In this document: in pieces, positions 3,001 through 31,823 of the stretch | Layout: every line of letters starts with the position of its first letter | Numbering within the stretch: position 1 is the stretch's first letter | The notes under the pieces: generated by a model | Databases searched by the model: none | Seen by the model: only the letters and a program-made list of their open reading frames with translations | Told to the model about the DNA's origin: nothing | Made by a program: the position numbers and the translations under genes | NCBI GenBank assembly: GCA_016235455.1 | Contig: JACRKZ010000016.1 | Coordinates: 1-39,276, forward strand | Length of the DNA stretch: 39,276 nt | Direction of reading: 5' to 3' | From: Armatimonadota bacterium | GTDB lineage: Bacteria; Armatimonadota; UBA10988

Positions 3001-3093
3001 CCGCCGGGCAGCTACCGGCTGGACGCTGAAGCTCTGGCCGCGGACGGTTCCGTGGACCGCGTGACGGTGACCGTGACGCTGACGGGCAGATAG
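1..3093 (+). CDS. Giant surface protein, 5'-truncated by the window: at least 6 Big_1 (invasin/intimin-like) Ig repeats plus conserved C-terminal module ending in FlgD-like Ig domain
   Basis: Frame 1 is open from base 1 (ITVRDAQGRAMAG...), so the ORF-track start at 31 is internal. ~105-aa Thr/Ala/Val-rich repeats with ADGxDT...VRDAxGN motifs; C-terminal 'WDGSDSQGRAVPPGSY' is the FlgD-Ig pattern. Confidence 0.85.
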   Translation: MTVRDAQGRAMAGIAAAQVVVAGSPTAGLTLTQPTTATNASGQTTATATCTKAGLVSFSATVAGVAFAEGADVTFQAGPLSAAQSTLSVDRASLTADGTDTATVTVTARDAQGNAITGVAPANVVLAAAPSTGVTLTQPTTATNASGQTTGTLVGTTVGTVTVSATVNGTAVIQTVQVGLVTAGIDAAGSGVAASATDVPADGQTPVTLTITLLASGGGPLAGIAASRLRIVANPSTGVTITQPSAATDAQGRTTATATSSAGGAVRFSATIDGGALGQVATVNFVAAAPDAARCTLVADKTSATADGADTVTFTATVRDANGNALAGIAANRLSLAVDIASGVTLGAFGTTDANGRATATATSTRSGARSFSLRVSGSLAGSPVAVSFTAGAVDAARSTLTADRAVAVANGQDSIVLTLVLRDALGNAKPGVPAAAVTFTSTGGTGSGLTLTGPAAASDASGRMTLSAKATAVQDVTLRVAVGGTAWTVAASFQPPQPSPSRSTVTLSPALIAADGAQQATVSVRLQDATGQPVIGSPASARSVSSSLVAVTVADAGAVSDANGAFEMRLTARQAGTTQVTVIVGGVRLAPVTLTVAGYADLHLVAGLQFVGLPVTPLADSLAALLAQPGVSARAFDPALQTYIPVGTTYTAGHGLWVQSAAALTQRLLGQATPDTAQRLPLVRGWNALANPFGQAVTWDLSAITVELNGVSLGSLVDPALWTGRVAPYGWLYSPDSGYRVLGDTSLPEFAAAQGSLPAYSGFWLRAETDGLALVLPPPTAARSRRAQAAPTHSDWALSLQAAQDDAENSQVIVGASGRLAQPLALALPPAARGQVPCGLTVVSAGGDRSAGEVRPAGPTQIWDLEVTSGSTAPVVLSWPGLGRGLSRGLVLDLADGNRTTLLNTRAAWRWQPSRVGEVRRLRLTARLGHVARSVVTSLSLAAGRGGGQSVALTLSAPAEVTLTVRGLGGRVVRQLHQSCGAGQTQLGWDGSDSQGRAVPPGSYRLDAEALAADGSVDRVTVTVTLTGR

Positions 3094-9100: not shown

Positions 9101-10111
9101 TTCGGCGCGCCGCTAAACTGGGACCTGGCCGCCATCGGTGTCGAGGTGAACGGCGCGCTGGTTGGACAACTGGGCGACCAGTCGCTGTGGACCAGCACAG
9201 TCTTGCCCTACGGCTGGGCCTATCGGGCTGGGCTCGGCTACCGATTGGTGTTCGACCCGACCCGGCTGGGCTTCGAGGCCGCGTTGGGCGTGTTGCCCTC
9301 GGGCGCTGGCGTGTGGGTGCAGGCGCTGCGCGACAACGTGGCGCTGGTCCTGCCGCCGACACCGCCCGGCACCGGCCGGGCGCGCCGTGCGGTGAGCGCG
9401 CGCGACTGGGCCTTGGCCCTGGCCGCGACACAAGGCGATGGCGTGCGGCAGAGCGCAGTGGTTGGTGTGTCCAGCGATCTGAGCCGACCGCTTGACCTGA
9501 GCCAGCCGCCCGCCGCCCGCGGGGAGGAGCCGGCTCTGCTGAGCGTGCTGTCGACCCAGGGCGGTCGGTTGGCCGGCGCGCTTGCGCTGCCGGCGGAGAC
9601 CCAGGTCTGGGAGCTTGAACTGCGCAGCGCCACGCGCGCGGCAGTGGTGCTGGACTGGCCAGCCCTGGGCCGCGCCTTGCCCCGCGGGCTCGTGCTGGAA
9701 CTGGTTGATCCGACGTCGGGCGGCACCACGCTGCTCAACACGCGGTCGGCCTGGCGCTGGCAGCCCACGCGCGCGGGCGAGACCCGGCGGCTGCGGCTGA
9801 CCGCGCGGCTCGGCCACGTGGCGCGCAGCGCCATCACCGGGCTGACCCTCGGCGGCAACCGCGGCGGCAGCCAGACCATCAGCTTGACGCTCAGCGCGCC
9901 GGCCGACGTGACGCTGACTGTGCGCGGCCTGGGCGGCCGCGTGGTCAAGTCGCTGCGCTGGACCTGCGCCGCGGGCACAACGGGCGTGGCCTGGGACGGC
10001 ACCGATGCCGACGGCCGACCTGTGCCGCGGGGCGTCTACCAACTCGAGGCCCAAGCCACCTCGCCCAACGGCGCTGTCGACAAGGCAACGCGCACCGTCA
10101 CGGTGCCGTAA
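3182..10111 (+). CDS. 2309-aa secreted/surface protein: signal peptide, LamG-like jelly-roll, parallel beta-helix repeats, 9 Big_1-like Ig repeats, shared C-terminal module with FlgD-like Ig domain
   Basis: RBS GGAGGG before ATG 3182 (alternative ATG 3200). Hydrophobic N-terminus; LamG motifs 'YWRLND', 'WHHLVGV', 'FDGWIDEVAVY'; repeated 'NTIGG...RNVISGN...GN(Y/T)IG' beta-helix turns; ADGxD repeats; 'WDGTDADGRPVPRGVY'. Confidence 0.9.
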   Translation: MADRRLMSERANNASVWLVVAAALLVSTPVWSAGGSDTYSLAVTADSPASYWRLNDSSGTTAVDQQGAANGTATVTWGEGGALANNIATAALFSPASNSTVDVNQVLGLIPGSGALTVEAWAKVKTPLTAMAIVNWDPSGYSTTVSQGSYQLRVSAAGKAEFAVSDSASTALTVAGPSIDDNKWHHLVGVVDRTNALLRLYVDGEQAATTAASTLVALLDSSPTSQPLSIGSRFVTPGPPSVFDGWIDEVAVYLGALSADRVAAHYAIGANALVVSTTNDNGEGSLRKALRIANTHVGLDVITFGLTGSSAYEIVLSTALPSITDKVTIDGTSQSGYTTKPVVGIIGPPSTAPGLVFDGGSGSTVKGLAFDGFTAPAIQLNSTSDTTTIQACWIGLRPAGTPTGITGSGIVIAGSDDNLIGGGSPSTANVIVNCSSAGVQCSGTTALGSTIGGNLIGLAADGVTAKPNGTGVLISGGNIVVMDNVISGNSSTAIHLTGTGATGNIVEGNTVGLNQAGSAAAANGGHGVYLDAGATNNTIGGTTTAKRNVISGNSGDGVRIWGGCSANTVEGNYIGLDATGAAALGNDDGVQIAQGAHDNLVGGTTTSARNVIAGSRLNGVSLADTGTLGNKVMGNTIGLDAAGTGALAVTGHGVLIHAGATDNTIGGTAAGAGNIIANSSGCGVAVLGSTSTGNAIEGNSIHDNASLGIDLVSDGVTANDASDPDTGPNQLQNTPVLDGAVTSGAGSLTVVGSLDSTTADSSYPVRLEFFRTGTADGSGHGEGLEYLGTKSVAAPGAFSASLAVTVAAGTTLSATATDAGGNTSEFATNVTCAGPASRLAFATDFSDAVAGVAINPRVVVEVRDSGNRRVYTSTATVTVAVSTPPSGATLLGTTSVAAVQGQAVFADINMTQPGSGLVVTAAANGLASAISAAFAITPASVDAAHTLLAVDKTTATADGTDTVALTITARDQYDNLVPGLAPSNLVVSGTPNAGLTIDQPTGSTDVNGRTTASARCTALAAVTFSVAVGATASPNTTQTIFQAGPPVAANCAITANPTTAAADGADTVTLTLTVHDANGHPVSGVAASRLRIAANPAAGVTLTQPAAATDAAGQTTASATSTRARTVAFSAKLDNTAFPATADVAFQPGPVDAATSTLVTDRSAILADGTDTATLTVTALDAQGNPLAGVTAANLVFSVSPSAGMTLTQPTAPTDSLGRASATLLGTVAGIVTVSVRVNGTLVTATADVTLSQPPVDAATSTLAVDRTAIRADGTDVANLTVTARDAQGRPLAGIAAANVVFSVSPTPGLTLTQPTTATDGQGRATATLAGTWVGTATVSVRANGTLLTATVQVALTATTVDGANSGLSANVSAVTADGTAPVTLTVALRDTSGNPITGIAASRLTVRGAPTTGLVITQPATVTDAAGHTTATAACTKAGTVTFTALLDGGPLGVTAQVTFTPGQPHAPSCTLTADKTSATADGADTVSFTITLRDASGNPVPGVAPSLLRVGPAGATGLTVVQPSAPTNALGQTTASATCTLAQGVTFDLAVATVPTGSTQLVNFVAGGPDPARCTLVANRGQATADGADSVVLTATVSDAQGNPLMALAGTRLGLRVTGLAVSGGSFGMTSASGQAAAVVTSTRAGTAQFQLTVDGAAAGVPQQVVFVPGPADQARSSLVSDKSSARADGTDALTLTLTLRDAHDNPLPGVAASSLSTSVAGALANWVAFAPVGQATDSAGRMLLRATATRPQSAALHVALGALGWSQPALFTPLRVDSGRSNVSVAPAVIAADDAERATVTVHLADARGVPVEGSAVGARTISLDNQAATVIDGGQTTALDGAFSFDVKSSAPGRVTVSTVVDGVRLPDAVITARAFADIDLPAGLSFMGLPLTPDTDSLSNWLGVAGLHVARWDVAAQAYAAQGSAYQPGTGLWVSTDAAQRRRLLGVPTPPSVQRIPLTRGWNACANPFGAPLNWDLAAIGVEVNGALVGQLGDQSLWTSTVLPYGWAYRAGLGYRLVFDPTRLGFEAALGVLPSGAGVWVQALRDNVALVLPPTPPGTGRARRAVSARDWALALAATQGDGVRQSAVVGVSSDLSRPLDLSQPPAARGEEPALLSVLSTQGGRLAGALALPAETQVWELELRSATRAAVVLDWPALGRALPRGLVLELVDPTSGGTTLLNTRSAWRWQPTRAGETRRLRLTARLGHVARSAITGLTLGGNRGGSQTISLTLSAPADVTLTVRGLGGRVVKSLRWTCAAGTTGVAWDGTDADGRPVPRGVYQLEAQATSPNGAVDKATRTVTVP
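5995..8815 (+). repeat. Intragenic tandem array of nine ~315-bp degenerate Big_1-like repeat units
   Basis: Units beginning at 6629 and 6944 (both PVDAATSTL...) are exactly 315 bp apart and strongly similar; other units are more diverged. Array boundaries are approximate. Confidence 0.8.
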
Positions 10112-10198
10112 CCGGTGCCCCGCCAGACCGACTCCCCACCCGCGTGCCGGTAGGCCCGGGTGGGGCGCCGCCTCGGACCACCCCAGCCAAGCCCAACG

Positions 10199-10227
10199 TT
10201 TGCTATTCACCCCCATTGGGGTAGAAT
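10199..10227 (+). promoter_or_regulatory. Putative sigma70-type promoter upstream of nagB-like gene
   Basis: TTGCTA (10200-10205) and TAGAAT (10222-10227), 16-bp spacer; a second extended -10 candidate TGcTATCCT at 10314-10322. Confidence 0.45.
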
Positions 10228-10344
10228 GAGCTGGGGCTGCTCGGAAGGCGACGGTAGCGTTGCGACACTGGGCCAAGCGACAGGCGAAGTGCTGGCGCGC
10301 GGGATCGGCGGGCTGCTATCCTCTAGTGAGGATGGGAGTCTGAC

Positions 10345-11274
10345 ATGCCGAGACCGCTGAGCACGATTGCCCCCCAATGGTGGGATTACACGACCCTCGA
10401 CGCCGAGTTGCTGGCCGATGCCGCCAAGCTCACGGCGCGCGACCTGGAGCAGTTGAGCCGGCCCGGCTTCGAGGTCGTTCTGTACGACACGCTCGAGGAA
10501 TTCTTCCTGGCCGAAGCGCTGGAGTACATCACCGCTTGGCGGCAGGCCACGCCCGACAACCCGGTGGGCCTGTGTGGGCCGATCGGCCCGACCGAGCAAC
10601 TGCCGCTGGTGGCGCAGTTGGTCAACGCGCTCGGCCTCAAACTACACGACGCCCATTTCTGGGGCATGGACGAGTGGGCCATCGACGGTCGCGAGGCGCC
10701 GCCGGATCACCCGCTGTCGTTCGAGCGCGCCGACCGCGAGTTGTGCTTCGACCGGATTGAGCGTGACCTGGTCATGCCCGACGCTAACCTGCACTTCCCG
10801 GCGGCCGACGCCACGGTGTACGAAGCCTCCTGGTCCGCTGTACGCTGTGCGCTCATGCAGGGCGGGCAGGGCGAGGTGAAACACTGGGCGTTCAACGACC
10901 CGCCGCGTCGTGAAGGCGCCTATGTCGACGCCCCGCCGACGCCCGCCGAGTACCGCGCGCTGGGTACGCGGGTGGTGGAACTGCATCCGCTCACGCTGAT
11001 CCAGAACGCGCGCACCTCGGGCGCGGGCAACATCCCGCTGGTGCCGCGCAACGCGGTCACCGTCGGGCCCCAGCAGACCTGGATGGCGGAGCAGGTCAGC
11101 ATCTGGCACCCAGGCCACCATGACAACCCGTTCGGCATCCGCCTGTCGGCGCTGATGATCAGCAAGGGCGTGGCCGACGCCAGTTTGCCCATGTCATTGC
11201 TGGCCGATCACCCCAACGTGAAGTTCAGCTATTGGCGCGGCGGCATCAAGTCGTGCGACACCGAGATGCACTGA
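10345..11274 (+). CDS. Glucosamine-6-phosphate deaminase/isomerase-like protein (divergent NagB family)
   Basis: 'HFWGMDEW' and '[14 protein letters not shown]' correspond to NagB motifs FNMDEY and GxGxNGHIAFNEP; RBS GGGAG upstream. Confidence 0.75.
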
Positions 11275-20040: not shown

Positions 20041-20368
20041 AAAAACGAAAAAGCCTCCATCTCCATCGAGACGGAAGCTCCGCGGTACCACTCGACTTGC
20101 CGCGAGACACACTCCAAGTGTCCGGCGACCAGCTTCTTCCCTACAACAGCCGCCATCTCGCCCCGGGCCAAGGCCGTGCCGATCTGGCTGTTGTGATAAG
20201 GCGACCAGGATAACGGGCGGTCGGCCCGGCTGTGTCTACTGGACCGCGGAGGGTCGTTGGCACAGCGGCTCGGAGGCGAGTTCGGTCGGCTGGCGGCACC
20301 GGGCTCACACCACTCCCCGGCTCGCTGGGCTCGCTGGCAGGACCTACTGGTTCCTCGTCAACGCCTGT
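20041..20368 (-). ncRNA. T-box riboswitch (Leu specifier CUC) with intrinsic terminator, controlling leuA
   Basis: Minus strand: stem I with AGUA, AG bulge, GGUGUGA loop and GAA-CUC specifier (20278-20280); CCGUUA box (20211-20216); T-box AAGUCGAG-UGGUACC-GCGG (20080-20098) pairing with CUCGA; terminator hairpin followed by UUUUUCGUUUUU. Confidence 0.93.
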
Positions 20369-20390
20369 TGCTATCTGCAACTGTGGGGGC

Positions 20391-20419
20391 AGTATAGGAA
20401 CCGGCCCGAGTGCTGTCAA
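20391..20419 (-). promoter_or_regulatory. sigma70 promoter for the T-box-leuA transcript
   Basis: TTGACA (20419-20414), 17 bp, TATACT (20396-20391). Confidence 0.85.
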
Positions 20420-20435
20420 GGACGGCCCCAAAAAG

Positions 20436-20463
20436 TTCCACGCCCCCAGTGCCGTGCTATTCT
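20436..20463 (+). promoter_or_regulatory. Putative extended -10 promoter of the pduS/pduT-like operon
   Basis: TGcTATTCT at 20455-20463, 27 bp before ATG 20491; weak -35 TTCCAC. Confidence 0.5.
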
Positions 20464-20490
20464 CTAGTGCGGAAGCGACGAAGGAGTGCC

Positions 20491-21834
20491 ATGAGCGCGA
20501 TGTCAACCGGCCGCAGTCTGGCCGATCTGGCGCGTGAGGCGGGTGTCGTAGGCGCCGGCGGAGCGGGGTTCCCAACCCACGTCAAGCTGGCCGGCCAGGC
20601 CGACACCGTCATCGCCAACGGCGCCGAGTGCGAGCCGCTGCTGCACAAAGATACTCTCTTGATGACCCACCGCGCCGCGGAGGTCGTGCGGGGCATGGCG
20701 CTGTCCATGGCCGCCGTCGGCGCCCAGCGCGGGCTGCTCGGCATCAAGCGCAAGCGCGAGGAGGCCGTCGAGGCGCTGCGCGCCGCGCTGCCGGCCGACG
20801 GCTCGATCGACCTGCTGCTGCTGGGCGACTTCTATCCGACCGGCGATGAGTACGACCTGGTCTACGCAGCCACGGGCCGGCTCATCCCGCCGGGCGGTAT
20901 CCCGCTCAACGTGGGTGCCGTGGTGCACAACGTCGAGAGCCTGTTGTGGCTGGCCAACGCCGCCGATGGGCTGCCGGTGACCGACAAATGGCTCACCGTG
21001 ACGGGCGCGGTGGCACAACCGCGGACCTTCACCGTGCCCGTAGGCACGCCGTTCTCGGCGCTGCTCGAGTTCTGCGGCGGGGCGACCGTGCCCGACCCGG
21101 TAGCCATGATCGGTGGCGCCATGATGGGTCGCATCAGCGACGATTTCGACCAGCCGGTGACCAAGACCACGGGCGGGCTGATCATCCTGGACCGCTCGCA
21201 CCCGCTGATCGTGCGCAAGACGCTGCCCATCGAGAGCAAACGGCGTATCGGCAAGTCGGCCTGCGACCAGTGCAGCTACTGCACGGAGCTGTGCCCGCGC
21301 TACCTGCTGGGCTACGACGTGCAGCCGCACAAGGTCATGCGCAGCCTGGGCTTCTTGTCGACCGGCTCGGCCATTCAGAACCAGTGGGGTCAGATGTGCT
21401 GCGCGTGTGGCGTCTGTACGCTCTACTCGTGCCCCGAAAGCCTGTTCCCCAAGGAAGCCTGTGACGACGCCAAGGTCGCGCTGCGCGAGGCGGGCATCAA
21501 GTGGTCGGGCACCGGGCGCGAACAGAAGGCCCATGCCAACTACGAGCATCGGCGTCTGCCCGTGAAGAAGCTGGTCAAGAAGCTGGGCCTGTATGACTAC
21601 GACCAGCCGGCGCCGTTCAGTCCCGAGCAGCCGAGCGCGGTGCGCTATGGCTATCCGCTGAGCCAGCATGTGGGCGCGCCGGCGGAGGCACAGGTGGCGG
21701 TGGGCGATGTGGTTCGGCGCGGCCAGGTGCTCGGCGAGTTGCCCGAAGGCAAGTTGAGCGCGCGGGTCCACTGCGGCGTGGATGGCGTGGTGGTCGAGGT
21801 GGGTGCTACGGTGTCAGTGGAGCGGCGGTCATGA
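20491..21834 (+). CDS. pduS: PduS-like (RnfC-related) FMN / 2x[4Fe-4S] oxidoreductase
   Basis: 'GVVGAGGAGFPT', 'ANGAECEP', SLBB region, 'CDQCSYCTELCP', 'CCACGVCTLYSCP'. The RnfC N-terminal barrel-sandwich motif 'PLSQHVGAPA' sits at the C-terminus as in PduS. RBS AAGGAG before 20491. Confidence 0.88.
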   Translation: MSAMSTGRSLADLAREAGVVGAGGAGFPTHVKLAGQADTVIANGAECEPLLHKDTLLMTHRAAEVVRGMALSMAAVGAQRGLLGIKRKREEAVEALRAALPADGSIDLLLLGDFYPTGDEYDLVYAATGRLIPPGGIPLNVGAVVHNVESLLWLANAADGLPVTDKWLTVTGAVAQPRTFTVPVGTPFSALLEFCGGATVPDPVAMIGGAMMGRISDDFDQPVTKTTGGLIILDRSHPLIVRKTLPIESKRRIGKSACDQCSYCTELCPRYLLGYDVQPHKVMRSLGFLSTGSAIQNQWGQMCCACGVCTLYSCPESLFPKEACDDAKVALREAGIKWSGTGREQKAHANYEHRRLPVKKLVKKLGLYDYDQPAPFSPEQPSAVRYGYPLSQHVGAPAEAQVAVGDVVRRGQVLGELPEGKLSARVHCGVDGVVVEVGATVSVERRS

Positions 21835-22382
21835 GTGAGAAATCGATTGGTCTGTTGGAGCTGACCAGCGTGGCAACGGGCTTTCAGGCGCTGGACGCCA
21901 TGCTCAAGACGGCCAACGTGGAAGTCGTGCTGGCCCGCAGCATCTGCTCGGGCAAGTACCTGATCATCGTCGCCGGCGATGTGGGCAGCGTGCGCGCGGC
22001 GGTAGGTGCCGGCGCGCACCTGGAGCCTCTGTCGGTGGTCAACTCCGAGCTCATCGCGCGTGTGCACGAGAAGGTCTTCCCGGCGCTGGGCGGCGCCACC
22101 GTGCCCAAGCTGCGCGGCGCGTTCGGCTGTGTGGAGTCGTTCTCGGTGGTCACCGGCATCAAGGTGGCCGACGCGGTGTGCAAGGCTGCCGATGTCGACC
22201 TGATCGAGCTGCGCGCGGCCATGGCGCTGGGCGGCAAGAGCTTCGTCACGTTCACCGGCGACGTGGGCGCCGTGAACGCGGCGGTGGAGGCCGGCAAGGC
22301 CGTGGCGGGCGAAGAGGGCCTGCTGGTCAACGCCGTGGTGATCGCCGGGCCGCATCCGGAGTTGGTGGCGGAGATCATCTAG
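21831..22382 (+). CDS. pduT: PduT-like tandem-domain bacterial microcompartment shell protein (BMC-T)
   Basis: 'SIGLLELTSVATGFQALDAMLKTANV...SICSGKY' matches the PduT N-terminus; second BMC domain 'GIKVADAVCKAADV...LGGKSFVTFTGDVGAVNAAV'; pore Cys39 retained; ATGA overlap with pduS. Confidence 0.92.
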   Translation: MSEKSIGLLELTSVATGFQALDAMLKTANVEVVLARSICSGKYLIIVAGDVGSVRAAVGAGAHLEPLSVVNSELIARVHEKVFPALGGATVPKLRGAFGCVESFSVVTGIKVADAVCKAADVDLIELRAAMALGGKSFVTFTGDVGAVNAAVEAGKAVAGEEGLLVNAVVIAGPHPELVAEII

Positions 22383-22385
22383 ACC

Positions 22386-23120
22386 ATGGCCAAACTCCTC
22401 GCCGGCCACACCGGGTCCAACTTCCACCGCCTGCTGCGCATCCTGACCGCGACCGCTCTGGTCGTGGCCCTGCCTGGCTTGGCGCTGGCCTTCTGGCGCG
22501 CCTTGTCGGCGCTGCCGACACGCCCCGCCTTTGCGCTGACGCTGGCCGGCTTCGTGGTCGGCATCGCCTTCGGTCGCATCGTGCTGCGCTGGCTGCCCAC
22601 GCTGTCCATCGCCGAGCATGAGTTCACGCATCTGCTCGCGGGCCTGCCGTTCCTCTGCCTGCCGACCAAGTTCGTGGTGCGACGCTCGGGCGGGCTGGCC
22701 AGCCATCGCGCCACGCCGCTACCGTATGTGGGCCCGTTGGTGGAGGACTTCATCACCCTCGCCCCCTACGTCTGCCCCACGCTGAGCCTGATCGCGGCGC
22801 CCTTCGCCGGCCCGGCCGCCGGCGCGCCGGTGATGGCGCTGCTGGGCGTGACACTGGGCTACCATGCCTCGACCACATGGGCCGAGATGCTGGTCAACTG
22901 GACCGGCCGTCGGCTGGAGCGCGCCGACCGGCGCGGTGAGATTCGCTCCGACATCGCGCAGGTGGGCTTCGGGTTCAGCCTGGTCTACATTCCTGCCGTC
23001 TCGCTGGCGCTGCACGGCATCGTGTTGGCCGTCGCCCTCAACGGTCTGGTCGGGCTCAACGCCTGGGCCGGCTTTGTCGCCCGCGGAGTGAGCGGGTTCT
23101 GGCTGGGCGCCCTGAAGTGA
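22386..23120 (+). CDS. M50/M50B-like membrane zinc metallopeptidase
   Basis: Several hydrophobic segments, HExxH ('EHEFTH'), 'ITLAPY' motif and downstream 'SD' third-ligand candidate. Confidence 0.7.
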   Translation: MAKLLAGHTGSNFHRLLRILTATALVVALPGLALAFWRALSALPTRPAFALTLAGFVVGIAFGRIVLRWLPTLSIAEHEFTHLLAGLPFLCLPTKFVVRRSGGLASHRATPLPYVGPLVEDFITLAPYVCPTLSLIAAPFAGPAAGAPVMALLGVTLGYHASTTWAEMLVNWTGRRLERADRRGEIRSDIAQVGFGFSLVYIPAVSLALHGIVLAVALNGLVGLNAWAGFVARGVSGFWLGALK

Positions 23121-24565
23121 CCACCTACGACCTGGTGGTGGTCGGCGGTGGCGCGGGCGGCTTCGGCGCGGCACTGGCTGGGTCGCGACTGGGGCTGCGC
23201 ACGCTGCTGGTCGAGAAGGCGCCGCGGCTGGGCGGCACGGCGGTATGGGGTGGGGTCAACTCCTGGGAGATGTGCGCCGGCGCCACCGGCGTGCCGTTCG
23301 ACCTGTACTGTCGCATGGCCCGGCGACCGCACGCCATCGGCGTCACCACACTGGGCCGCCATTTGACCTACTACCGTGCCGATCGCGAGCCCTACCGCTA
23401 CCCCGGGGCAGAATGGCTGATCGATCGCGCGCGCACCTACGCCGATAGCCTGCACCGCTGCGGCACCCGCGGCATGGCGGCAGACGAGGCCAAGGTGCGG
23501 GCGCAATGGCACGGGGTGAGCTTCGAGCCGGAGACAATGGCCGAAGTGATGGCCGCCATGCTGGCCGAAGCCGGATGCACGGTGCGATTGGGCGTCGGTT
23601 TCGCCGATGCAGCGCACTTGGCCGGCCACATTCAGGCGCTCGGACTGACTGACGGAGCGATGGTGACCGCCAGGACCGTGGTTGATGCCACAGCCGACGA
23701 CGTGGTGTGCCGCGCCGTGGGCTGCGAGGTGCTCATCGGGCGTGACGACAAGGCCGCCTGGGCCGAGCAGGGCGCGCCGGAGACGGCGACCGACGAACTC
23801 AACGGCGTATCGCAGTTGTTCCGCGTCACGCGCTCCGCGGACGACATGATCGAGCCCCTGCCGGCCGGTGTCGACGCCAAGTGCTGGTGGCGCGCCGGGT
23901 TCCCTGCCGTGCATGTGGTGCAGTACCCCAACGGCGACCTGAGCCTGAACATGCTGCCCACGATGGAGGGCCGCGAGTGGTACCGGCTCGGCGCGCGCGC
24001 CGCGGCGGCGGAGTGCCAGCGGCGCGTGTGGGCCCAGTGGCACTGGCTGCAGAGTAGTTGCGCCGAGTTCCGCGGCTTCCTGATGAGCTGGATCGCGCCG
24101 GCCCTGGGTGTCCGCGAGAGCTACCGCATCCGCGCCGAGTACCAGCTCACCGAGGCCGACCTGCGCGCCGGGCTCAGCCGTCAGCAGCACGAGGACATCA
24201 TCGCCATGGCCGACCATCCGCCAGACACTCACGGTGTCAGCGCGGGGGGCATCGGTGAACTGCGGGAACCCTATGGCGTGCCTTACCGCTGCCTGGTGCC
24301 GCGCGGCTGGCGCAACCTGCTGGTGGCTTCGCGGGGAGCTGGGTTCAGCACCATCGCGGCCAGCAGTTGCCGGCTCACGCGGGCCATGATGCAGCTCGGT
24401 CAGGCGGCCGGCACGGCGGCCTGGGTGGCGGCGCAGACCAACCACGACGCGGCAGCATGCCCGACCGCCGCCTTGCGCGAGCGGCTCAGGCATGATGGCG
24501 TGCAGCTCGAATGGCCGCCCAGCGACGCGCTGCGGGCGCGGATGGCAGTCCCTGCCGGCCCATAG
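23117..24565 (+). CDS. FAD-dependent oxidoreductase (FAD_oxidored type)
   Basis: 'YDLVVVGGGAGGFGAA', 'VEK...LGG', 'VDATAD', 'GVRESYRI', 'YGVPYRCLVP', 'GQAAGTAA'; GTGA overlap with the upstream gene. Confidence 0.88.
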   Translation: MTTYDLVVVGGGAGGFGAALAGSRLGLRTLLVEKAPRLGGTAVWGGVNSWEMCAGATGVPFDLYCRMARRPHAIGVTTLGRHLTYYRADREPYRYPGAEWLIDRARTYADSLHRCGTRGMAADEAKVRAQWHGVSFEPETMAEVMAAMLAEAGCTVRLGVGFADAAHLAGHIQALGLTDGAMVTARTVVDATADDVVCRAVGCEVLIGRDDKAAWAEQGAPETATDELNGVSQLFRVTRSADDMIEPLPAGVDAKCWWRAGFPAVHVVQYPNGDLSLNMLPTMEGREWYRLGARAAAAECQRRVWAQWHWLQSSCAEFRGFLMSWIAPALGVRESYRIRAEYQLTEADLRAGLSRQQHEDIIAMADHPPDTHGVSAGGIGELREPYGVPYRCLVPRGWRNLLVASRGAGFSTIAASSCRLTRAMMQLGQAAGTAAWVAAQTNHDAAACPTAALRERLRHDGVQLEWPPSDALRARMAVPAGP

Positions 24566-24637: not shown

Positions 24638-25588
24638 TCAGCCCTTGAGCGCCGCGCGAACGGCGTCGAGCTGGCCCGCGCTGCCGAGCTTGACATTCTT
24701 CTTGGCGATGAACTCGGCGTAGACCGGCATGAAGACCTTGCCGGGGTCGCGCAGGTCGAACTTCTCGGGGAAGTCGCGGAAGAACTCGCGGTGCACGCGG
24801 CACCAGACCAGGCGGCCGTCGGTGTCGATGTTGACCTTGGTCACGCCCAGCGTGGCAGCCTTGGCGAACTGGTTCTCATCGACGCCCTTGGCGCCCTTGA
24901 GGTCGCCGCCGGCGGCGTTGATGCGGGCCACTTCTTCCTGCGGCACGGAGCTGGAGCCGTGCATGACCAGCGGGAAGCCGGGGCAGCGCTTCTGGATGTC
25001 TTCGATGACTTCGAAGTGCAGGCCCTGGGTGCCACTGAACTTGAACGCGCCGTGGCTGGTGCCGATGGCGCAGGCCAGCGAGTCGCAGCCGCTGCGGGCG
25101 ATGAACTCCGCGGCCTCGGCGGGGTTGGTCAGCTTGGCGTCGGCCTCGGAGACACTGACGTGCTCTTCCACACCACCCAGCTTGCCCAGCTCGGCCTCGA
25201 CGCTGATGCCCTTGGCATGGGCCGCATCGACCACCCGCTTGGTGATGGCGATGTTGTCCTCGAAGGACTCGGCGCTGGCGTCGATCATCACGCTCGAGTA
25301 GAACCCGCTCTCGATGCAGTCGTAGCAGGTTTGCTCATCGCCGTGGTCGAGGTGAACCGCGAAGATGGCGTCGGGGAAGACGTCGTCGGCCGCGCGGATC
25401 ATGCCTTCGAGCATGGCCTTGTGCGTATACGAGCGGGCGCCCTTGCTGATCTGGATGATGAACGGCGCCTTGCTGTCCAGGTTGCCCTGGAACAGGCCCA
25501 TGGTCTGCTCCAGGTTGTTGATGTTGTACGCGCCGATCGCATACTTGCCGTACGCCTGCTTGAACAGGTCGGCGGTGGTCACAATCAT
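24638..25588 (-). CDS. fba: Class II fructose-1,6-bisphosphate aldolase
   Basis: 'VHLDHG', 'SSVMIDAS', 'VEAELG', 'AIGTSHGAFK', 'LVMHGSS', 'KVNIDTD'. Confidence 0.95.
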   Translation of the reverse strand: MIVTTADLFKQAYGKYAIGAYNINNLEQTMGLFQGNLDSKAPFIIQISKGARSYTHKAMLEGMIRAADDVFPDAIFAVHLDHGDEQTCYDCIESGFYSSVMIDASAESFEDNIAITKRVVDAAHAKGISVEAELGKLGGVEEHVSVSEADAKLTNPAEAAEFIARSGCDSLACAIGTSHGAFKFSGTQGLHFEVIEDIQKRCPGFPLVMHGSSSVPQEEVARINAAGGDLKGAKGVDENQFAKAATLGVTKVNIDTDGRLVWCRVHREFFRDFPEKFDLRDPGKVFMPVYAEFIAKKNVKLGSAGQLDAVRAALKG

Positions 25589-25715
25589 CGTCGATGTCCT
25601 TCCTTACGGTATCCGGCCACGCCGGAACCACGACCCGTGGGGTAGGTTACGGCGATTGCACTCGTTGGTAGGTTTGCCGTCATTCTACACCAGATCGCGG
25701 CAGATCGACCCAAGA

Positions 25716-27476
25716 TCAGCGCTCGATGGCCGCGCGACGTCGCTGTGCGGCACGAACACGCGTCAGATCGTATTTGGCCGAGCGGTCGAACAGGTAGATA
25801 CCATTCTGCTCCTGGAAGACATCGGTGAGCTGTGTGTAGCAGTAGCCGAACATGTGAACATCGTCCAGCAGCGCCGCCACCAGGCCCTCGAAGCGCGTGT
25901 AGAACTCCTCCAGGCTCTTGGGCCGCTCGCCATAGCCCCAGGAGTCCTCGCCTTCCTTGGCCGCCGGGTTCCACCAGATGCCGCCGAACTCGCTGACGAA
26001 GTACGGCTGGCCCTGATAGGGCAGTGACCAGGGCTTGTCCTCGGGTCCGTTCACATACGGCTTGTCCTCGGCCAAGCCCGCGTGGCGCTGGGCGAACGTC
26101 TCGGGGTTCTGGTCGTAGTCGTGCGAGTCGTAGATGTCCGTGCAGCCCATGCGATGGCTGTAGCCCGAGGTGTCCAGCACCGGGCGCGTGCCGTCGATCA
26201 GCTTGGCGGCGTGCCACATGGCCTTGGTCAGATCGTCGAGCCCCTGGATGCCGTCGGTAATCGACTGCGCCGTCTCATTAAGCCCGCACCAGCCAACGAT
26301 GCTCGGGTGCGACTGGTCGCGCTGCAGTTCCTCGATCCACTCGCCCACATAGGCGGCCGAGGGATTGTTGCGATCGACGCCCCAGTCGGGGAACTCGCCC
26401 CACACCAGGTAGCCCAGCTTGTCAGCCCAGAACAGGAAGCGCTCCTCGAAGATCTTCTGGTGCAGGCGCGCGCCATTGAAGCCCGCGGCGATGGACAGCA
26501 GGATGTCGTTCTTCAGGGCCTCGTCGCTGGGCGCGGTGAGGATGCCGTCGGCATAGTAGCCCTGGTCGAGCACCAGTCGCTGGAAGACCGGCTGGCCGTT
26601 GAGCAGGACCGCCTTGCCGCGGATGGCCACCGAGCGCAGACCGGCGTAGCTCAGCACGCGATCCACGATCTGGCCGTCCTCGTCCTCGAGTTCGATGGTC
26701 AGGCCATAGAGGAACGGATCGGCGGGACCCCACAGGCGGCGCTTGTCGGCGGGCACCGGCAGGTCGAGCATCGGCGCCATGTCGCCGACGACCACTTCGG
26801 CGCTGGCCACGATGCCTTCTTCATAGAGCAGCACCGCGCGGACCTTCATGCCCGCGCGCGCGCCGGTCAGCGGCTGGGTCAGGCGGAACACGCTGTTGGG
26901 CACGTCAGGCACGATCCTGGGTCGCCCGAGCGAGGACTTGGCCACCGGCTCCAGCCACACGCTCTGCCAGATACCCGTGGTACGAGTGTAGTGGCAGCCG
27001 TGGTTGTCATAGAGCGACGACTGTTTGCCCAACGGCTTGGGCGTGCGGTGGTTGTCGCGGGCGCGCACGACGATGGTCGCCGTCTCGCCTGGCGCGGCCG
27101 CGCCGTCCAGGTCGCAGGTGAACGGCACGCCGCCGCCGCGATGCCTCGCGACCTCCTTGCCGTTGACCCAGACCGTGGCGTCGTAGTCGACCGCCTGGAA
27201 GTGAAGCAGCACTTTCCGGCCCGCCCAGGCGGCGGGCAGCGCCACCTCGCGGCGGTACCAGACCGCACTGAGGAAGTCGACATGGCCGTGGCCGGACAGC
27301 GTCGACTCCGGGCAGAAGGGCACGGTGATGCTGCTATTGAGTTCCCGGCCCAACAGCCCGCGCTCGCGGCCGGTGTCGGCGTGGTCGAACTCGAACTGCC
27401 AGGTGCCGTTGAGGCACAGCCAATCGCTGCGCACCATCTGCGGTCGTGGGTACTCGGCTCGCGGCTGGTCGGACAT
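25716..27476 (-). CDS. Glycoside hydrolase family 2 (beta-galactosidase/glucuronidase-like), no signal peptide
   Basis: 'PRAEYPRPQ...LNGTWQF', 'LHFQAVDY', 'TGIWQSVWLE', 'LDQGYY.DG', acid/base 'NE', nucleophile 'SEFGG', 'GYCYTQLTDV.QE.NG'; RBS AGAGGAG before ATG 27476. Confidence 0.9.
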   Translation of the reverse strand: MSDQPRAEYPRPQMVRSDWLCLNGTWQFEFDHADTGRERGLLGRELNSSITVPFCPESTLSGHGHVDFLSAVWYRREVALPAAWAGRKVLLHFQAVDYDATVWVNGKEVARHRGGGVPFTCDLDGAAAPGETATIVVRARDNHRTPKPLGKQSSLYDNHGCHYTRTTGIWQSVWLEPVAKSSLGRPRIVPDVPNSVFRLTQPLTGARAGMKVRAVLLYEEGIVASAEVVVGDMAPMLDLPVPADKRRLWGPADPFLYGLTIELEDEDGQIVDRVLSYAGLRSVAIRGKAVLLNGQPVFQRLVLDQGYYADGILTAPSDEALKNDILLSIAAGFNGARLHQKIFEERFLFWADKLGYLVWGEFPDWGVDRNNPSAAYVGEWIEELQRDQSHPSIVGWCGLNETAQSITDGIQGLDDLTKAMWHAAKLIDGTRPVLDTSGYSHRMGCTDIYDSHDYDQNPETFAQRHAGLAEDKPYVNGPEDKPWSLPYQGQPYFVSEFGGIWWNPAAKEGEDSWGYGERPKSLEEFYTRFEGLVAALLDDVHMFGYCYTQLTDVFQEQNGIYLFDRSAKYDLTRVRAAQRRRAAIER

Positions 27477-27588
27477 GCTGGGGCTCCTCTGTTGGTTGAC
27501 GATAAGGTAATCGGTTGGGCCGCGCTCGGCCATGACAAAAAGCGTTGCGCCCTTGCCCAAGCGGTTTGTGCTCTGGCGCGCTGACGCG

Positions 27589-29613
27589 TCAGTCGCGTGC
27601 CTCCTTGGGCCGTGGGCCGACATCGCTCAAGTCGATGGGTTCGAAGCCCAGCGCCCACAGCGGCGACTCGGGCGCAGGCGTGAAGTCACCGCCACGTGGG
27701 TCGGCCAGCCGCGGATCGGCCACCACCGAATGGCGATCCACGCCGAGCGCCTGCCAGCCGGCCAGGTCGAGCTGGCCGCCCTTGGCGACGAAGCGCGGCT
27801 CACCGGCCAGATCCCAGTACAGGTTCAGCTCCGCGCAGTGGTTACGGCCCTGGGCGGCCACATCGTAGCCGGCGGTCATCATCGGCGTGCCGTCGGCGAG
27901 GAACAGGTTGCGCTCGAAGGTCAGAGCCATGGCGTCGGGGGTGGCCCGGCTATGGGCCACCACGGCCTCGGCGCCGAAGGCGAAGATGTTGTTGCGCACC
28001 GTGTTCTCGCGCCCGTAGTGCTGGTGGAAGACCTGGCTGTCGGTGCCGTAGCAGATGTTGTTCTCAATGACCAGGTGCGAACTGCCCTCGTCGGGGTAGA
28101 TGGCCCAGCCGCCGTAGTTGTGTCGCCGGACGTCGTGGATCAGATTGCCGCGCAACACCGTGCCCGGCTGTACGCCCAGGGTGTAGATGCCGCCCATGTC
28201 GCTGAGCAGGCCTTGGCCCAGGTCGTGGATGTGGTTCTTCTCGATCCGGTTGTCGCGGGCCACGTTCTCGTGGTAGCCCCATTCCCAACCGACCGAGATG
28301 CCCGTGTAGTACAGGTCGGCGATCTCGTTGTGGCTCAGCACGTTGGCTGCGGCGTGGCGGCAGAGGATGCCGCAGGCGCTGTGGAACACGCGTCCCGCGC
28401 CGACGATGCGATTGTCGGTGATGCGGCACTGCCCAGTGCGGCGCGCGTGCGGCTCGCGCCAGTCCGCGCCGCTGATCTTCACGCCGCCGGCGCCCAGGTC
28501 GGTCAGCTCACAACCCACCACGCGGATGCCCCGGCAGCCGTCGGCGATGTCCAGCGCGTAGCCGCCGGTGTGGCGGATGGTGCAGTCTTCGAACGAGATG
28601 TGTGCGCAGCCCTCGAGCGAGATGGCGCCGGGCGCCTTGAACGCGCCCTGGTAGGAGTTGGCGTTCAGGCCGCCGTGGCGCACGTCCGGCTCGTCCCACG
28701 GCTGGTCCCAGTCGGTGTGCTCGAAGGTCAGGCCCTCGAAGCGGAACCACTCCACGAGGTGGCCGGTGTCGGGACTGCCCTCGAAGCGTAGCAGCTGTGT
28801 GGTGACCGGCACGTCGACGGTGGTGTTCTCGGGGGTCTGCCCCGGCTCGGGCAGGTACCAGAGCTGCCCCGAGTAGCGGTCCAGGTACCACTCGCCCGGC
28901 TCGGTGGTGGCCTCCAGCACGTTCTCCACGTAATAGCGCGCCCAGCGGTCGGTGAAGTCGTCGCGCAGGCTGAACGTGGTCCGTATCGGGAAGCTGACCA
29001 TGCGGCTGGTCGGGTCGTAGGCGGAGATGGGCAGATGCTCCTCGATCCAGTAGTGCAGCAGCACGACGGTCACGTCGCCCAGGTTGTGCCAGTAGTCGAG
29101 ATCGCCAGTCGCGGCGACGAAATGGTCGTTGCCGGCGAACAGCTCGGCGTTGGCCGGCGTGCCGGGCGCGGCCTCGATGCGGAAGAAGCCTTGCTTGGGG
29201 AACCGCGTGCGGACGCGCCGCTGGCCGTTGACGAACAGGCTGCGGAAGAACAGCTTGCCGTCGGCCACCTCAGGCAGGTCGACCACCCAGGCCGGCTGGC
29301 CGTTGAGCGTGTCCTCGCGCCAGCCTGTGATGCGGCGTGAGCCGCAGAGCACAGGATGCTCGTTGGGGTAGGCGGCGAAGGTCACCGGACATGTATCGGC
29401 CGGCGTGATGACCAGCGGTTCGGCCAACGGGTAGCGCCCGTCGCGCAGCCACACGGTCACCGGTTCCGACAGGCGGGCCTCGGCCTTGAGCCGGCGCAGT
29501 CGGGCCAGGACACCGGGCAGGCTGGCCAGGGGGCCGTCGGTGCCCTCGGCGTTGGGTTCGGGCAGGCGGCCGGGCCAGGTGTCGCGGCCCAGCGCGGAGA
29601 CGAACAACTCCAT
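27589..29613 (-). CDS. Right-handed parallel beta-helix protein, GH141-like putative glycosidase, no signal peptide
   Basis: 'LRDGRY', 'LFVNGQR..RTRFP', 'YYVENVLE...PGEWY', 'YTGISVGW.W', 'LSDMGGIYTLG', 'IYPDEGSS'; RBS GGAGGA before ATG 29613. Confidence 0.8.
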   Translation of the reverse strand: MELFVSALGRDTWPGRLPEPNAEGTDGPLASLPGVLARLRRLKAEARLSEPVTVWLRDGRYPLAEPLVITPADTCPVTFAAYPNEHPVLCGSRRITGWREDTLNGQPAWVVDLPEVADGKLFFRSLFVNGQRRVRTRFPKQGFFRIEAAPGTPANAELFAGNDHFVAATGDLDYWHNLGDVTVVLLHYWIEEHLPISAYDPTSRMVSFPIRTTFSLRDDFTDRWARYYVENVLEATTEPGEWYLDRYSGQLWYLPEPGQTPENTTVDVPVTTQLLRFEGSPDTGHLVEWFRFEGLTFEHTDWDQPWDEPDVRHGGLNANSYQGAFKAPGAISLEGCAHISFEDCTIRHTGGYALDIADGCRGIRVVGCELTDLGAGGVKISGADWREPHARRTGQCRITDNRIVGAGRVFHSACGILCRHAAANVLSHNEIADLYYTGISVGWEWGYHENVARDNRIEKNHIHDLGQGLLSDMGGIYTLGVQPGTVLRGNLIHDVRRHNYGGWAIYPDEGSSHLVIENNICYGTDSQVFHQHYGRENTVRNNIFAFGAEAVVAHSRATPDAMALTFERNLFLADGTPMMTAGYDVAAQGRNHCAELNLYWDLAGEPRFVAKGGQLDLAGWQALGVDRHSVVADPRLADPRGGDFTPAPESPLWALGFEPIDLSDVGPRPKEARD

Positions 29614-29694
29614 CGGCGTCCTCCGGATTCGCCTGGCTGCTTCGACCCAGGCCACGCGACACCTGCTATCATCGCACGCCGGAAGGGCAGACTC

Positions 29695-30714
29695 ATGCGC
29701 GTGCTGATCGTTGGCGGTTCGGGGCTCATCAGCCAGTACATCACCCGGCAGTTGCTCGAGCGCGGCGACGAGGTGGTCTGGTTCAACCGCGGCCAGTCGC
29801 GCTGCGCGGTGGACCTGCCGGCGCAGCCCCGGACTCTCGTTGGCGACCGTCACAACGAGTCGGAGTTCGAGGCTGCGGTGCGCGGCAATGGACCCTGGGA
29901 CGCCGTGATCGACATGATCGGCTACCAGCCGGCCGAAGTCGCCAGCCTGCTGCGCGCGGTCGAGGGAGTCGCCGCTCACCTCGTGTTTTGCAGCACGGTG
30001 GACGTCTACGCCAAGCCGTACCCCATATTGCCCGTGCGCGAGGACTCGCCGCTGGGCCCGAGCAACCCCTACAGCGCCGGCAAGATCGCCAGCGAGGCGC
30101 TGGTCACCGCCGCCCACGACGCCGGCCGCATCGCGGCGACCATCCTGCGCCCGGCGCACACCTATGGCGAAGGCCGCTCGTTCTTCGGCAGCTACATGAA
30201 TGGTGGCCTGTATCTGGATCGGCTACGCCGCGGCAAGCCCATCCTGGTCCACGGCGACGGGCAGTCGTTGTGGACCGCCTGCCATGGCGACGATGTGGCG
30301 CGGGCGTTTGTGGGTGCGTTGGACAATCCACTGGCGCGCGGCCGGGCCTACCATGTCACCGCCGAGGAATGGCTGACCTGGAACCGCTACCACGAACTGG
30401 CTGCCGAGGCGCTCGGCGCGCCGGCCCCGACGCTGGTGCATGTGCCCAGCACGCTTCTGGCCCGACTCAATCCGGGCCGCTGCGGGATCTGTCTGGAGAA
30501 CTTCCAGTTCGACAACATCTTCGACAACGGCGCCGCCAAAGCGGATCTCGGCTTTCGCTACACCATCTCGTTCGTCGAGGGCGTGGCCCGCATTGCCGCC
30601 TGGCTGGAAGCGCACGGCGGCCTGCCGGACAGCGACGGTGACACCGGCGAGGACCGGCTCATCGACGCATGGCGCGCCAGTTGCGACCGGTTGGCCGCCG
30701 AGCTGGCTGACTAG
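29695..30714 (+). CDS. NAD-dependent epimerase/dehydratase (extended SDR)
   Basis: 'MRVLIVGGSGLIS', 'FNRG', 'STVDVY', YxxxK 'YSAGK', 'LRPAHTYG'. Start at ATG 29695; extended -10 TGcTATCAT at 29664-29672. Confidence 0.88.
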   Translation: MRVLIVGGSGLISQYITRQLLERGDEVVWFNRGQSRCAVDLPAQPRTLVGDRHNESEFEAAVRGNGPWDAVIDMIGYQPAEVASLLRAVEGVAAHLVFCSTVDVYAKPYPILPVREDSPLGPSNPYSAGKIASEALVTAAHDAGRIAATILRPAHTYGEGRSFFGSYMNGGLYLDRLRRGKPILVHGDGQSLWTACHGDDVARAFVGALDNPLARGRAYHVTAEEWLTWNRYHELAAEALGAPAPTLVHVPSTLLARLNPGRCGICLENFQFDNIFDNGAAKADLGFRYTISFVEGVARIAAWLEAHGGLPDSDGDTGEDRLIDAWRASCDRLAAELAD

Positions 30715-31787
30715 CGCTTGGGTGCGGGGCCCGTGCTGGCGCGCACGATGAGTTCCGACGCGGGCCGCTCCACCAGGCCCGAAGCCTGCTCGGGCGTGAG
30801 TTGACCCTCGGCGAGGGCCAGCGCCATGGTGGCGGACCGCTCGCCCACCTGCCACAGGTTGCCGGTGACCACCGTCAACGGCGGCACGGCATACTCCGCA
30901 TAGAAATCATCGAAGCTGAGCACCGAGACATCCTCGGGGATGCGCAGGCCGGCGGCGCGCAATGCCGCACAGGCACCCAGCGCGGCCCGCTCGGAGTAGA
31001 CCACCAACGCCGTGCCCGGCAGACCGTTGGCCAGTCGGCGCGCGATCTGCTCCCGCGCCGCTTCGATGGCCGGCGCGACGTCAGCCTGGCTGGCCAGGTT
31101 GTCGACGGCCACCGGCCAGGTGGTGACTTCGAGCCCAAGCGCGCGGCTCTGGGCCATGACGCCCTCGGATCGGGGCAGGTCGTTGACCGCGCCGTTCTCG
31201 GTGAGCGGCACCCAGACGATGCGGCGGTGGCCCAGTTCGGCCAGGTGCGTCATGGCCGAGCGCAGGCCGGGCGCCATGTCGGCGGCCACGCACGGATGGT
31301 TGCCCACGAACGAGGAGTCGCAGTAGACGATCGGCGCGTCGACCGCTTCGAGTTCCGGGATGTACTCGGCATACATGACCAGAGGGACGATGAGCGCGTC
31401 CAGACGCCGCTGCAACAAGTGCGCGATACCGCGCTGCAGCTCATCCTGGGAGCGGTCGGGCCCGACGACGATCAGGTCCTGGTTGGCGCCACGCAACTGC
31501 GTCTGCACCCCGCTGAAGATCCGCGACCAGTACTGGCTGCCGTGGTCGCGTTTGAGTTCGGCGCGCGACACCAGGCCGATGCAGTTGGAGCGGCCGCTCT
31601 GCAGCGCCCGGGCCATGTAGTTGGGCGTGTAGCCCATCTCCTGGGCGATGGCCCAGACTCGCTTCTGCGTCTCTTCGCTGACGGCAGCGGTGCCGCGGGC
31701 GCCGTTGAGGGTCTTGGAGACCGCGGTGACCGAGCATCCCGCGCGCTCGGCAATCTGCTTAAGCGTCACCCCGCGCTGTCTGGCCAT
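30711..31787 (-). CDS. LacI-family transcriptional regulator
   Basis: HTH 'VTLKQIAERAGCSVTAVSKTLN', hinge 'YTPNYMARAL', 'IPEDVSVLSFDD'; 4-bp convergent overlap with the epimerase. Confidence 0.93.
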   Translation of the reverse strand: MARQRGVTLKQIAERAGCSVTAVSKTLNGARGTAAVSEETQKRVWAIAQEMGYTPNYMARALQSGRSNCIGLVSRAELKRDHGSQYWSRIFSGVQTQLRGANQDLIVVGPDRSQDELQRGIAHLLQRRLDALIVPLVMYAEYIPELEAVDAPIVYCDSSFVGNHPCVAADMAPGLRSAMTHLAELGHRRIVWVPLTENGAVNDLPRSEGVMAQSRALGLEVTTWPVAVDNLASQADVAPAIEAAREQIARRLANGLPGTALVVYSERAALGACAALRAAGLRIPEDVSVLSFDDFYAEYAVPPLTVVTGNLWQVGERSATMALALAEGQLTPEQASGLVERPASELIVRASTGPAPKR

Positions 31788-31823
31788 GGAACCACCTGTC
31801 ATCCCTATAGTGATATGCGCGCG

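Follow-up and report, generated by a model that had tools for sequence, protein, structure and literature searches.

In the bacterial microcompartments (BMCs) treated by Sutter et al. (PNAS 2024, PMC11626177), MNdh proteins, the homologues of PduS, oxidise the reduced nicotinamide adenine dinucleotide (NADH) made by the encapsulated aldehyde dehydrogenase (AldDH) and send the electrons out of the shell, from flavin mononucleotide (FMN) over two Fe-S clusters and finally over the one carried by the shell protein BMC-T^SE. According to the sections of that paper that deal with the module, 97% of loci have the genes of MNdh and BMC-T^SE next to each other, satellite loci account for 18 of the 20 occurrences of the module in PVM types, and it is not accompanied by any specific acceptor protein. 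In FRAG microcompartments, as characterized in the pertinent part of Sutter et al. 2021 (PMC8217296), the shell genes are spread over as many as six places and include a BMC-P triplet; a class II aldolase is given as the signature enzyme of the PVM types in the corresponding parts of Axen et al. 2014 (PMC4207490) and of PMC8217296. The present study concerns a run of four genes in 39,276 nucleotides of DNA from an Armatimonadota bacterium (assembly GCA_016235455.1, contig JACRKZ010000016.1, here C139), a stretch that comprises the whole contig and is referred to as the window; the draft genome has 6.5 Mb in 185 contigs at 69% G+C and is 93% complete. We hold it, with good confidence, as a single joint reading that genes 1 and 2 encode a PduS/PduT pair, hence the MNdh/BMC-T^SE module of a metabolosome, that the pair is a satellite of a microcompartment encoded elsewhere in the genome, and that the two genes behind it, one for a membrane protein that we call X and one for an oxidoreductase dependent on flavin adenine dinucleotide (FAD), are its passengers.

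The first open reading frame (ORF) of the run shows, in Pfam, a Complex1_51K domain (the FMN/NADH domain, 147 bits), an SLBB domain, a 4Fe-4S dicluster domain (Fer4_17) and a C-terminal RnfC_N barrel, and its translation carries two complete cysteine motifs, CxxCxxCxxxCP and CxxCxxCxxxxCP. The protein scores 243.8 bits against the rnfC subfamily model of NCBIfam, slightly below the cut-off of 245.95; in the PDB, RnfC chains match it at E 8e-54. The second ORF comprises two BMC domains (PF00936, 145 bits in Pfam), and its product can be aligned over the whole length with the PduT structures 3n79 and 3pac as well as the BMC-T 3nwg (E 1e-36 to 7e-43), Cys39 being placed onto the Fe-S-binding pore cysteine of the PduT structures. 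This cysteine is invariant, both among the orthologues (10/10) and among homologues from other phyla (80/80). The identification of PduS and PduT in the sequence-only reading is thereby borne out by the domain sets, the similarity to RnfC and the aligned pore cysteine, and the pair displays every feature of membership in the MNdh/BMC-T^SE module that can be tested in sequence. It shares with the published module the same two proteins in the same order, the pore cysteine, the satellite position, an AldDH-type metabolosome in the genome and the lack of an alcohol dehydrogenase gene adjoining the BMC pieces found here. It differs in the two extra genes attached to the operon and in the pore motif, which is CSGK here and CP(G/S)K in the wording of PMC11626177, as far as its motif description goes; among the 80 homologues the motif is CSGK in 38, CPGK in 34, and CAGK and CPGR in 4 each. 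With the PDU systems of Salmonella and Citrobacter it has in common the fold of PduT, the Fe-S-binding pore cysteine (3n79, 3pac) and the domain set of PduS, yet there the genes are part of a 20-gene pdu operon and here they form a satellite of two.

Whole-genome scans for shell genes (PF00936 and PF03319) place the remainder of the microcompartment on other contigs. Within the window, these scans together with Pfam on the 32 further ORFs find no BMC gene besides the two PduT domains, just as the sequence-only reading had stated for the 39 kb. Outside it, PF00936 finds two genes on contig C126, and PF03319 (BMC-P) finds, above the cut-off, two genes on C52 and one on C137, so that the shell set of the genome amounts to 2 BMC-H, 3 BMC-P and 1 BMC-T, each piece lying among unrelated genes. 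The gene order on C126 is Aldolase_II (PF00596), BMC-H, BMC-H and phosphotransacylase (PTAC, PduL); PduL reaches 242.9 bits against NF011652 (cut-off 209), and the aldolase matches fuculose-phosphate-aldolase-like models, all of them under their cut-offs. An AldDH of the EutE/PduP type is encoded on C133 between housekeeping genes. It scores 533.6 bits with NF011927, for which the cut-off is 403, and shares 43.6% identity with the AldDH in the BMC locus of genome G034. As read from the genome sequence, pduS-pduT is not an orphan: the two genes form a satellite of a fragmented microcompartment of the class II aldolase type. The label of an orphan module, used in the sequence-only reading, falls with the shell and core genes on C126, C52, C137 and C133; the alternative offered alongside it, a satellite of a microcompartment whose genes lie elsewhere, is the one that the scans uphold. 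What appeared to be an orphan is the normal, published satellite form of an NAD+-recycling electron port, and a false lead is removed.

The dispersed arrangement has its likeness in the FRAG and PVM loci, to the extent that the cited surveys describe them: shell genes lie here on four contigs with the AldDH on a fifth, and the BMC-P genes make up a triplet (2 + 1). The class II aldolase (PF00596) stands beside BMC-H as the signature enzyme of the PVM types does, and the phosphotransacylase is PduL, again within what those surveys set out. No alcohol dehydrogenase gene was found beside any BMC piece of the genome, and the PduS/PduT pair is therefore the likely NAD+ recycler of the microcompartment. 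Since no B12-dependent diol dehydratase was found beside any BMC piece examined, the role of cobalamin reductase originally ascribed to PduS is inapplicable. A PduS-PduT relay operating in the cytosol independently of a shell, which the sequence-only reading had suggested might feed the FAD enzyme, would be in keeping with the absence of any other BMC gene from the 39-kb contig. It is opposed by the 2 BMC-H, 3 BMC-P and 1 BMC-T genes of the genome along with its aldolase, PduL and EutE/PduP-type AldDH, and by the report of MNdh only in BMC types having AldDh, as the relevant account in PMC11626177 has it. With a full shell set in the genome and the FAD gene adjacent to the pair nowhere else, such a relay is not seen, and we regard it as close to excluded.

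Two further observations were made on C126 (locus L009). An ORF of 246 aa on the minus strand (4235-4975), which has a 4-base overlap with the end of pduL and matches no Pfam or NCBIfam family, is a candidate for a new microcompartment component. Genomes G034 and G021 have unnamed ORFs of 213-215 aa at the matching place, and no similarity to these is detectable in the present genome. Also on the minus strand (9245-11216), a DUF3160 domain is split across two overlapping ORFs, of which the one at 10197-11216 covers model positions 2-87 and the one at 9245-10669 positions 174-632; a frameshift, a broken gene or a sequencing error could be the cause.

The pair as such is well conserved. Full-length PduT orthologues occur in all five same-family genomes (67-75% identical), in the one genome of the same order (52%) and in both of family f17 (43-44%). 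PduS lies upstream on the same strand in each of these eight loci, in six of them directly adjacent to pduT, where it is 56-75% identical; in the two f17 loci one radical-SAM gene separates the two. Among 80 PduT loci from many phyla, drawn from outside the window's own family, 79 have a PduS-like gene upstream on the same strand, the exception having 220 bp of upstream DNA. Sufficient flanks (at least 4 kb on each side) were available for 43 PduT loci; 18 of these are isolated pairs and 25 are accompanied by another shell gene, AldDH, PduL or aldolase, a division confined to the retrieved flanks and made with this genome's own proteins as queries, which may have overlooked very divergent shell genes. 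BMC-H genes and pduST are on different contigs in the same-family genomes, which indicates that the satellite layout is family-wide. Unlike the scattered pieces of this genome, G034 and G021, from another family of the same phylum, hold a consolidated locus in the order aldolase, BMC-H, BMC-H, AldDH, PduS, radical SAM, PduT. The radical-SAM gene situated between PduS and PduT in these two genomes (L036:5918-6958 and L037:5588-6601) encodes 337-346 aa, and its best match in the present genome is 32% identical and lies on C38; in the same-genus genome G001 a radical-SAM gene is found near pduT at L033:8185-8826.

G001 also locates the point at which the gene order of the window departs from its own. 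The succession sigma70-MurD-LeuA-PduS-PduT is kept there and is followed by a convergent 2-hydroxyacid dehydrogenase gene and the radical-SAM gene. Orthologues of these two post-pduT genes of G001 sit on C94 in the present genome, which implies a rearrangement breakpoint directly after pduT.

By analogy with the published module, PduS inside the shell would oxidise the NADH released by the acylating aldehyde dehydrogenase and would hand the electrons from FMN through its two [4Fe-4S] clusters to the PduT trimer, in which three Cys39 would hold a central [4Fe-4S] cluster from where the electrons would reach an acceptor outside the shell. Gene X would have joined the pduS-pduT operon in a narrow lineage. 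The FAD gene would have been set beside X in this organism only, probably via the rearrangement that separates it from the same-genus relative after pduT.

The junctions of the run, all of them read in the sequence as the earlier reading had described them, are an ATGA overlap of pduS and pduT (21831-21834), a TAG followed by three bases and ATG between pduT and X (22380-22388), and a GTGA overlap of X and the FAD gene (23117-23120). The 3-bp gap and the GTGA overlap make it probable that X and the FAD gene are co-transcribed with pduST. In a draft of 185 contigs whose order departs from that of a same-genus relative right after pduT, one may ask if metagenome assembly brought pduST, X and the FAD gene together in a chimera. 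Start and stop codons are intact where they overlap, and both inner junctions are bridged by contigs of other public runs with 0-2 letters differing, that of pduT and X by run X3 (22182-23099) and that of X and the FAD gene by X3 (23073-23332) as well as by X5 from a different study (23074-23264). Owing to these bridging contigs the gene order is not an assembly chimera, an explanation that we consider close to excluded and to which we assign next to no weight.

Protein X is matched by no family of either Pfam or NCBIfam, not even at E 10, and does not reach the gathering score of PF13398 (Peptidase_M50B). It has about six hydrophobic segments and the motif E-H-E-F-T-H, the HExxH of which sits at the end of the second segment. 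A collection of 5.8 billion proteins yielded four relatives, three of them 76, 75 and 56% identical, on contigs of 1.1 kb for the first two and 1.7 kb for the third, and a fourth 34% identical with a PF13398 domain, and a metagenome scan added 77 loci with X relatives. In an alignment of 59 sequences, 51 of which match PF13398, the residues H78, E79 and H82 of H78-E79-x-x-H82 are invariant. The profile of the six proteins of the X clade finds that of 53 PF13398-type relatives at an hhalign probability of 99.9 (E 5.5e-31), and a language-model atlas likewise points to PF13398. From the invariant HExxH, the PF13398 relatives and the profile-profile match, X is taken as a divergent M50B-like membrane protein and, by these sequence comparisons, is a clear remote relative of PF13398 Peptidase_M50B, to which it is alike in the position of HExxH after the second hydrophobic segment, in the number of segments and in its similar length. 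The earlier designation as an M50-like peptidase thus holds as to motif and remote kinship, and not as to a Pfam assignment of X.

In site-2 proteases a second motif of the LDG type supplies the third metal ligand. No LDG motif is present in the X alignments, in which a nearly invariant D189 and the histidine of a GYH motif are seen; these two could be stand-ins for the LDG metal ligand. A profile search with the 59 X relatives found no PDB relative at E 1. Co-folding of the PduT trimer with X scored 0.01 against a mark of 0.32, which is no answer and counts neither way. A full-text literature search returned no paper linking M50B-like proteins with microcompartments.

The distribution of X separates it from the pair. 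X was found in none of the 40 related genomes, including the five same-family genomes that keep pduS-pduT, and no X-like gene is near PduT in the 80 loci from other phyla. PduS and PduT accompany an X relative in one (L050) of the 77 metagenome loci; none of 75 more distant ones shows either in the flanking DNA available; and L051, the third locus of the X clade, has no PduT C-terminus in the 62-98 bp upstream. L050 is a stretch of 3.4 kb with the end of pduS, pduT (81% identical) and X (56% identical), and the FAD gene is not among the ORFs that follow X there.

The FAD enzyme scores 216 bits against PF12831 FAD_oxidored (cut-off 27) over residues 5-457 and has a Rossmann GxGxxG motif (GGGAGG) from residue 10, no signal peptide and no Fe-S motif. 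An extension resembling an encapsulation peptide was considered and rejected, the orthologues aligning from residue 3-4 to residue 472-478 of 482. Matches in the PDB are to the N-terminal Rossmann motif only, with no close solved structure, and a full-text search found no relevant literature on the function of PF12831. There are 10 matches to the enzyme in the genome at E 1e-10 or better. The nearest orthologues of the FAD gene (48-52% identical; G002, G003, G004, G019) are on contigs other than those of pduST, and two of the four lie beside glycoside hydrolase (GH) genes: that of G004 directly upstream of an orthologue (64% identical) of the GH2 gene of the window, and that of G019 among GH106, GH31, GH123 and UxaC-like genes; those of G002 and G003 have mixed or housekeeping neighbours. 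The gene is next to pduST in none of the 8 related loci and none of the 80 loci from other phyla, and it does not follow X in L050. The contact with the GH2 orthologue in G004 ties the FAD gene to the adjacent sugar cluster rather than to pduST, and by this comparison it looks like a member of that cluster rearranged to sit behind X.

Considered together, the comparisons suggest that the pair is the known, published module and that the attachment of X and the FAD gene is lineage-specific. The four genes are best read, on their distribution, as a lineage-specific operon extension of a known pair, X and the FAD gene being, most likely, passengers co-transcribed with pduST; a dedicated role in the organelle is unlikely since neither gene is conserved alongside the pair. 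The sequence-only reading had treated the run as one module and had named, as the finding that would overturn this, peptidase and FAD genes not syntenic with pduST in relatives together with a canonical BMC locus elsewhere that simply lacks pduST. This is largely what we find: the FAD gene is beside pduST in 0/8 and 0/80 loci and X in one further place, L050, which keeps it after pduT, and the genome's other BMC loci are simply without pduST. A conserved four-gene module is not supported, and the earlier remark that no described BMC locus has this gene set applies to X and the FAD gene and not to a detached pduS-pduT, which is already described in PMC11626177.

Several points weigh against the passenger reading or narrow its base. 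L050 is an independent metagenome contig, and it has pduT and then X with the same 3-bp gap, so that the order of these two genes is not a single occurrence. With junctions this tight, all four genes are likely to be co-transcribed and translationally coupled, and a functional link is hence possible in this organism. X carries a basic loop at residues ~168-186, a 19-residue insertion with the consensus NWTxRRLxRADxxGxIRSD in the six X-clade proteins, which is absent from the 53 PF13398-type relatives. Completeness is 80% for G001, and in G002 and G006 pduT is followed by just 3 and 225 bases of contig, so that the downstream context is readable in four of the six same-family and same-order loci. 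In the published scheme the microcompartment may be of the PVM, PVM-like or FRAG type.

Some of these points would acquire meaning if X were a true partner of PduS and PduT, forming with them a unit of three genes in which it tethers or localises the organelle at the membrane via its cytoplasmic loop, or processes shell or cargo, the FAD gene being unrelated. The loop confined to the X clade would fit with this, and so would pduS-pduT-X with its 3-bp gap in the window and in L050, that is, in two of the three X-clade loci with readable upstream DNA. Against such a unit stand the 40 related genomes and the 80 PduT loci in which X was not found, the 75 distant metagenome relatives with neither PduS nor PduT in the available DNA, and the upstream DNA of L051; moreover, synteny at ~81% PduT identity is explicable by simple inheritance. 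We deem the three-gene unit unlikely.

A redox module of all four genes, in which the PF12831 flavoprotein accepts the electrons leaving via PduT and X serves as membrane anchor or regulator, draws on the probable single transcription unit and on PMC11626177, in whose treatment of the module the physiological acceptor of BMC-T^SE is unknown. It has to contend with the FAD gene being found beside pduST or X nowhere else, with a family that has 10 matches in the genome and orthologues beside glycoside hydrolases in half of the cases, and with an enzyme devoid of Fe-S motif or terminal extension, where the same treatment in PMC11626177 expects a small ferredoxin- or flavodoxin-like acceptor fitting the concave face of the pore. 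We consider this module very unlikely. Equally slim, in our judgement, is the chance that the two genes have become lineage-specific partners, the basic loop of X docking a shell tile at the membrane and the PF12831 flavoprotein taking the exported electrons; if true, the acceptor side of the microcompartment electron conduit would thereby gain its first candidate with a genetic link. The locus is, in any case, a rare one with genes packed translationally behind pduT, the membrane HExxH protein seen twice and the flavoprotein once, and should the linkage prove to be maintained, X and the flavoprotein would be cheap candidates for the electron acceptor outside the shell.

Features of the window at and around pduS-pduT and its probable passenger genes
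Feature	Position	Strand	Basis
leuA-pduS spacer, divergent, 319 bp	20172..20490	.	sequence reading
PduS / MNdh-type flavo-iron-sulfur NADH dehydrogenase, 447 aa	20491..21834	+	Pfam, NCBIfam, PDB matches, orthologues
PduT / BMC-T^SE tandem-BMC shell protein, 183 aa, pore Cys39 in CSGK	21831..22382	+	Pfam, PduT structures
Gene X, 244-aa polytopic membrane protein, predicted divergent PF13398 (Peptidase M50B-like) relative	22386..23120	+	alignments, profile-profile comparison
PF12831 FAD-dependent oxidoreductase, 482 aa	23117..24565	+	Pfam
G+C hairpin, perfect 15-bp stem, 4-nt loop	24583..24616	.	folding vs shuffles
Class II fructose-bisphosphate aldolase	24638-25588	-	Pfam scan
GH2 glycosidase	25716-27623	-	Pfam scan

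Translation of pduS is preceded by a Shine-Dalgarno sequence, GAAGGAG, 4 bases 5' of its ATG. A consensus scan of the leuA-pduS spacer found no sigma-70-like promoter on the plus strand. Its sole match, TTGACA, 17 bases and TATACT (11/12), is on the minus strand at 20419-20391 and points towards leuA; it was rejected as operon promoter for its orientation, and the promoter candidate that the earlier reading gave to the four genes is not confirmed. From the site to the leuA start at 20171 there are ~220 bases, which leaves room for a leader. The closing hairpin described before is confirmed: the 72-nt stretch containing it folds at -44.6 kcal/mol (z = -5.46), with no equally stable structure in 200 shuffles. 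It is without a U tract, sits between the convergent FAD and class II fructose-bisphosphate aldolase genes, and may be a bidirectional terminator.

The sugar-use cluster that follows (24638-31802) consists of the class II fructose/tagatose-bisphosphate aldolase, GH2, a GH141-like beta-helix protein, an NAD epimerase/dehydratase and LacI. Its ORFs at 27589-30159 (minus) and 29356-30714 (plus) overlap by ~800 bases, so that at least one start is wrong. At the other end of the window, two giant genes are found on the plus strand at 1-3093 (open at the contig end) and 3182-10111 (2309 aa). Both have Big_1 / Invasin_D3 repeats and an FlgD_ig domain at the end, the second additionally Laminin_G_3 and beta-helix domains; from this make-up, a role as surface adhesins or in the binding of glycans is probable.

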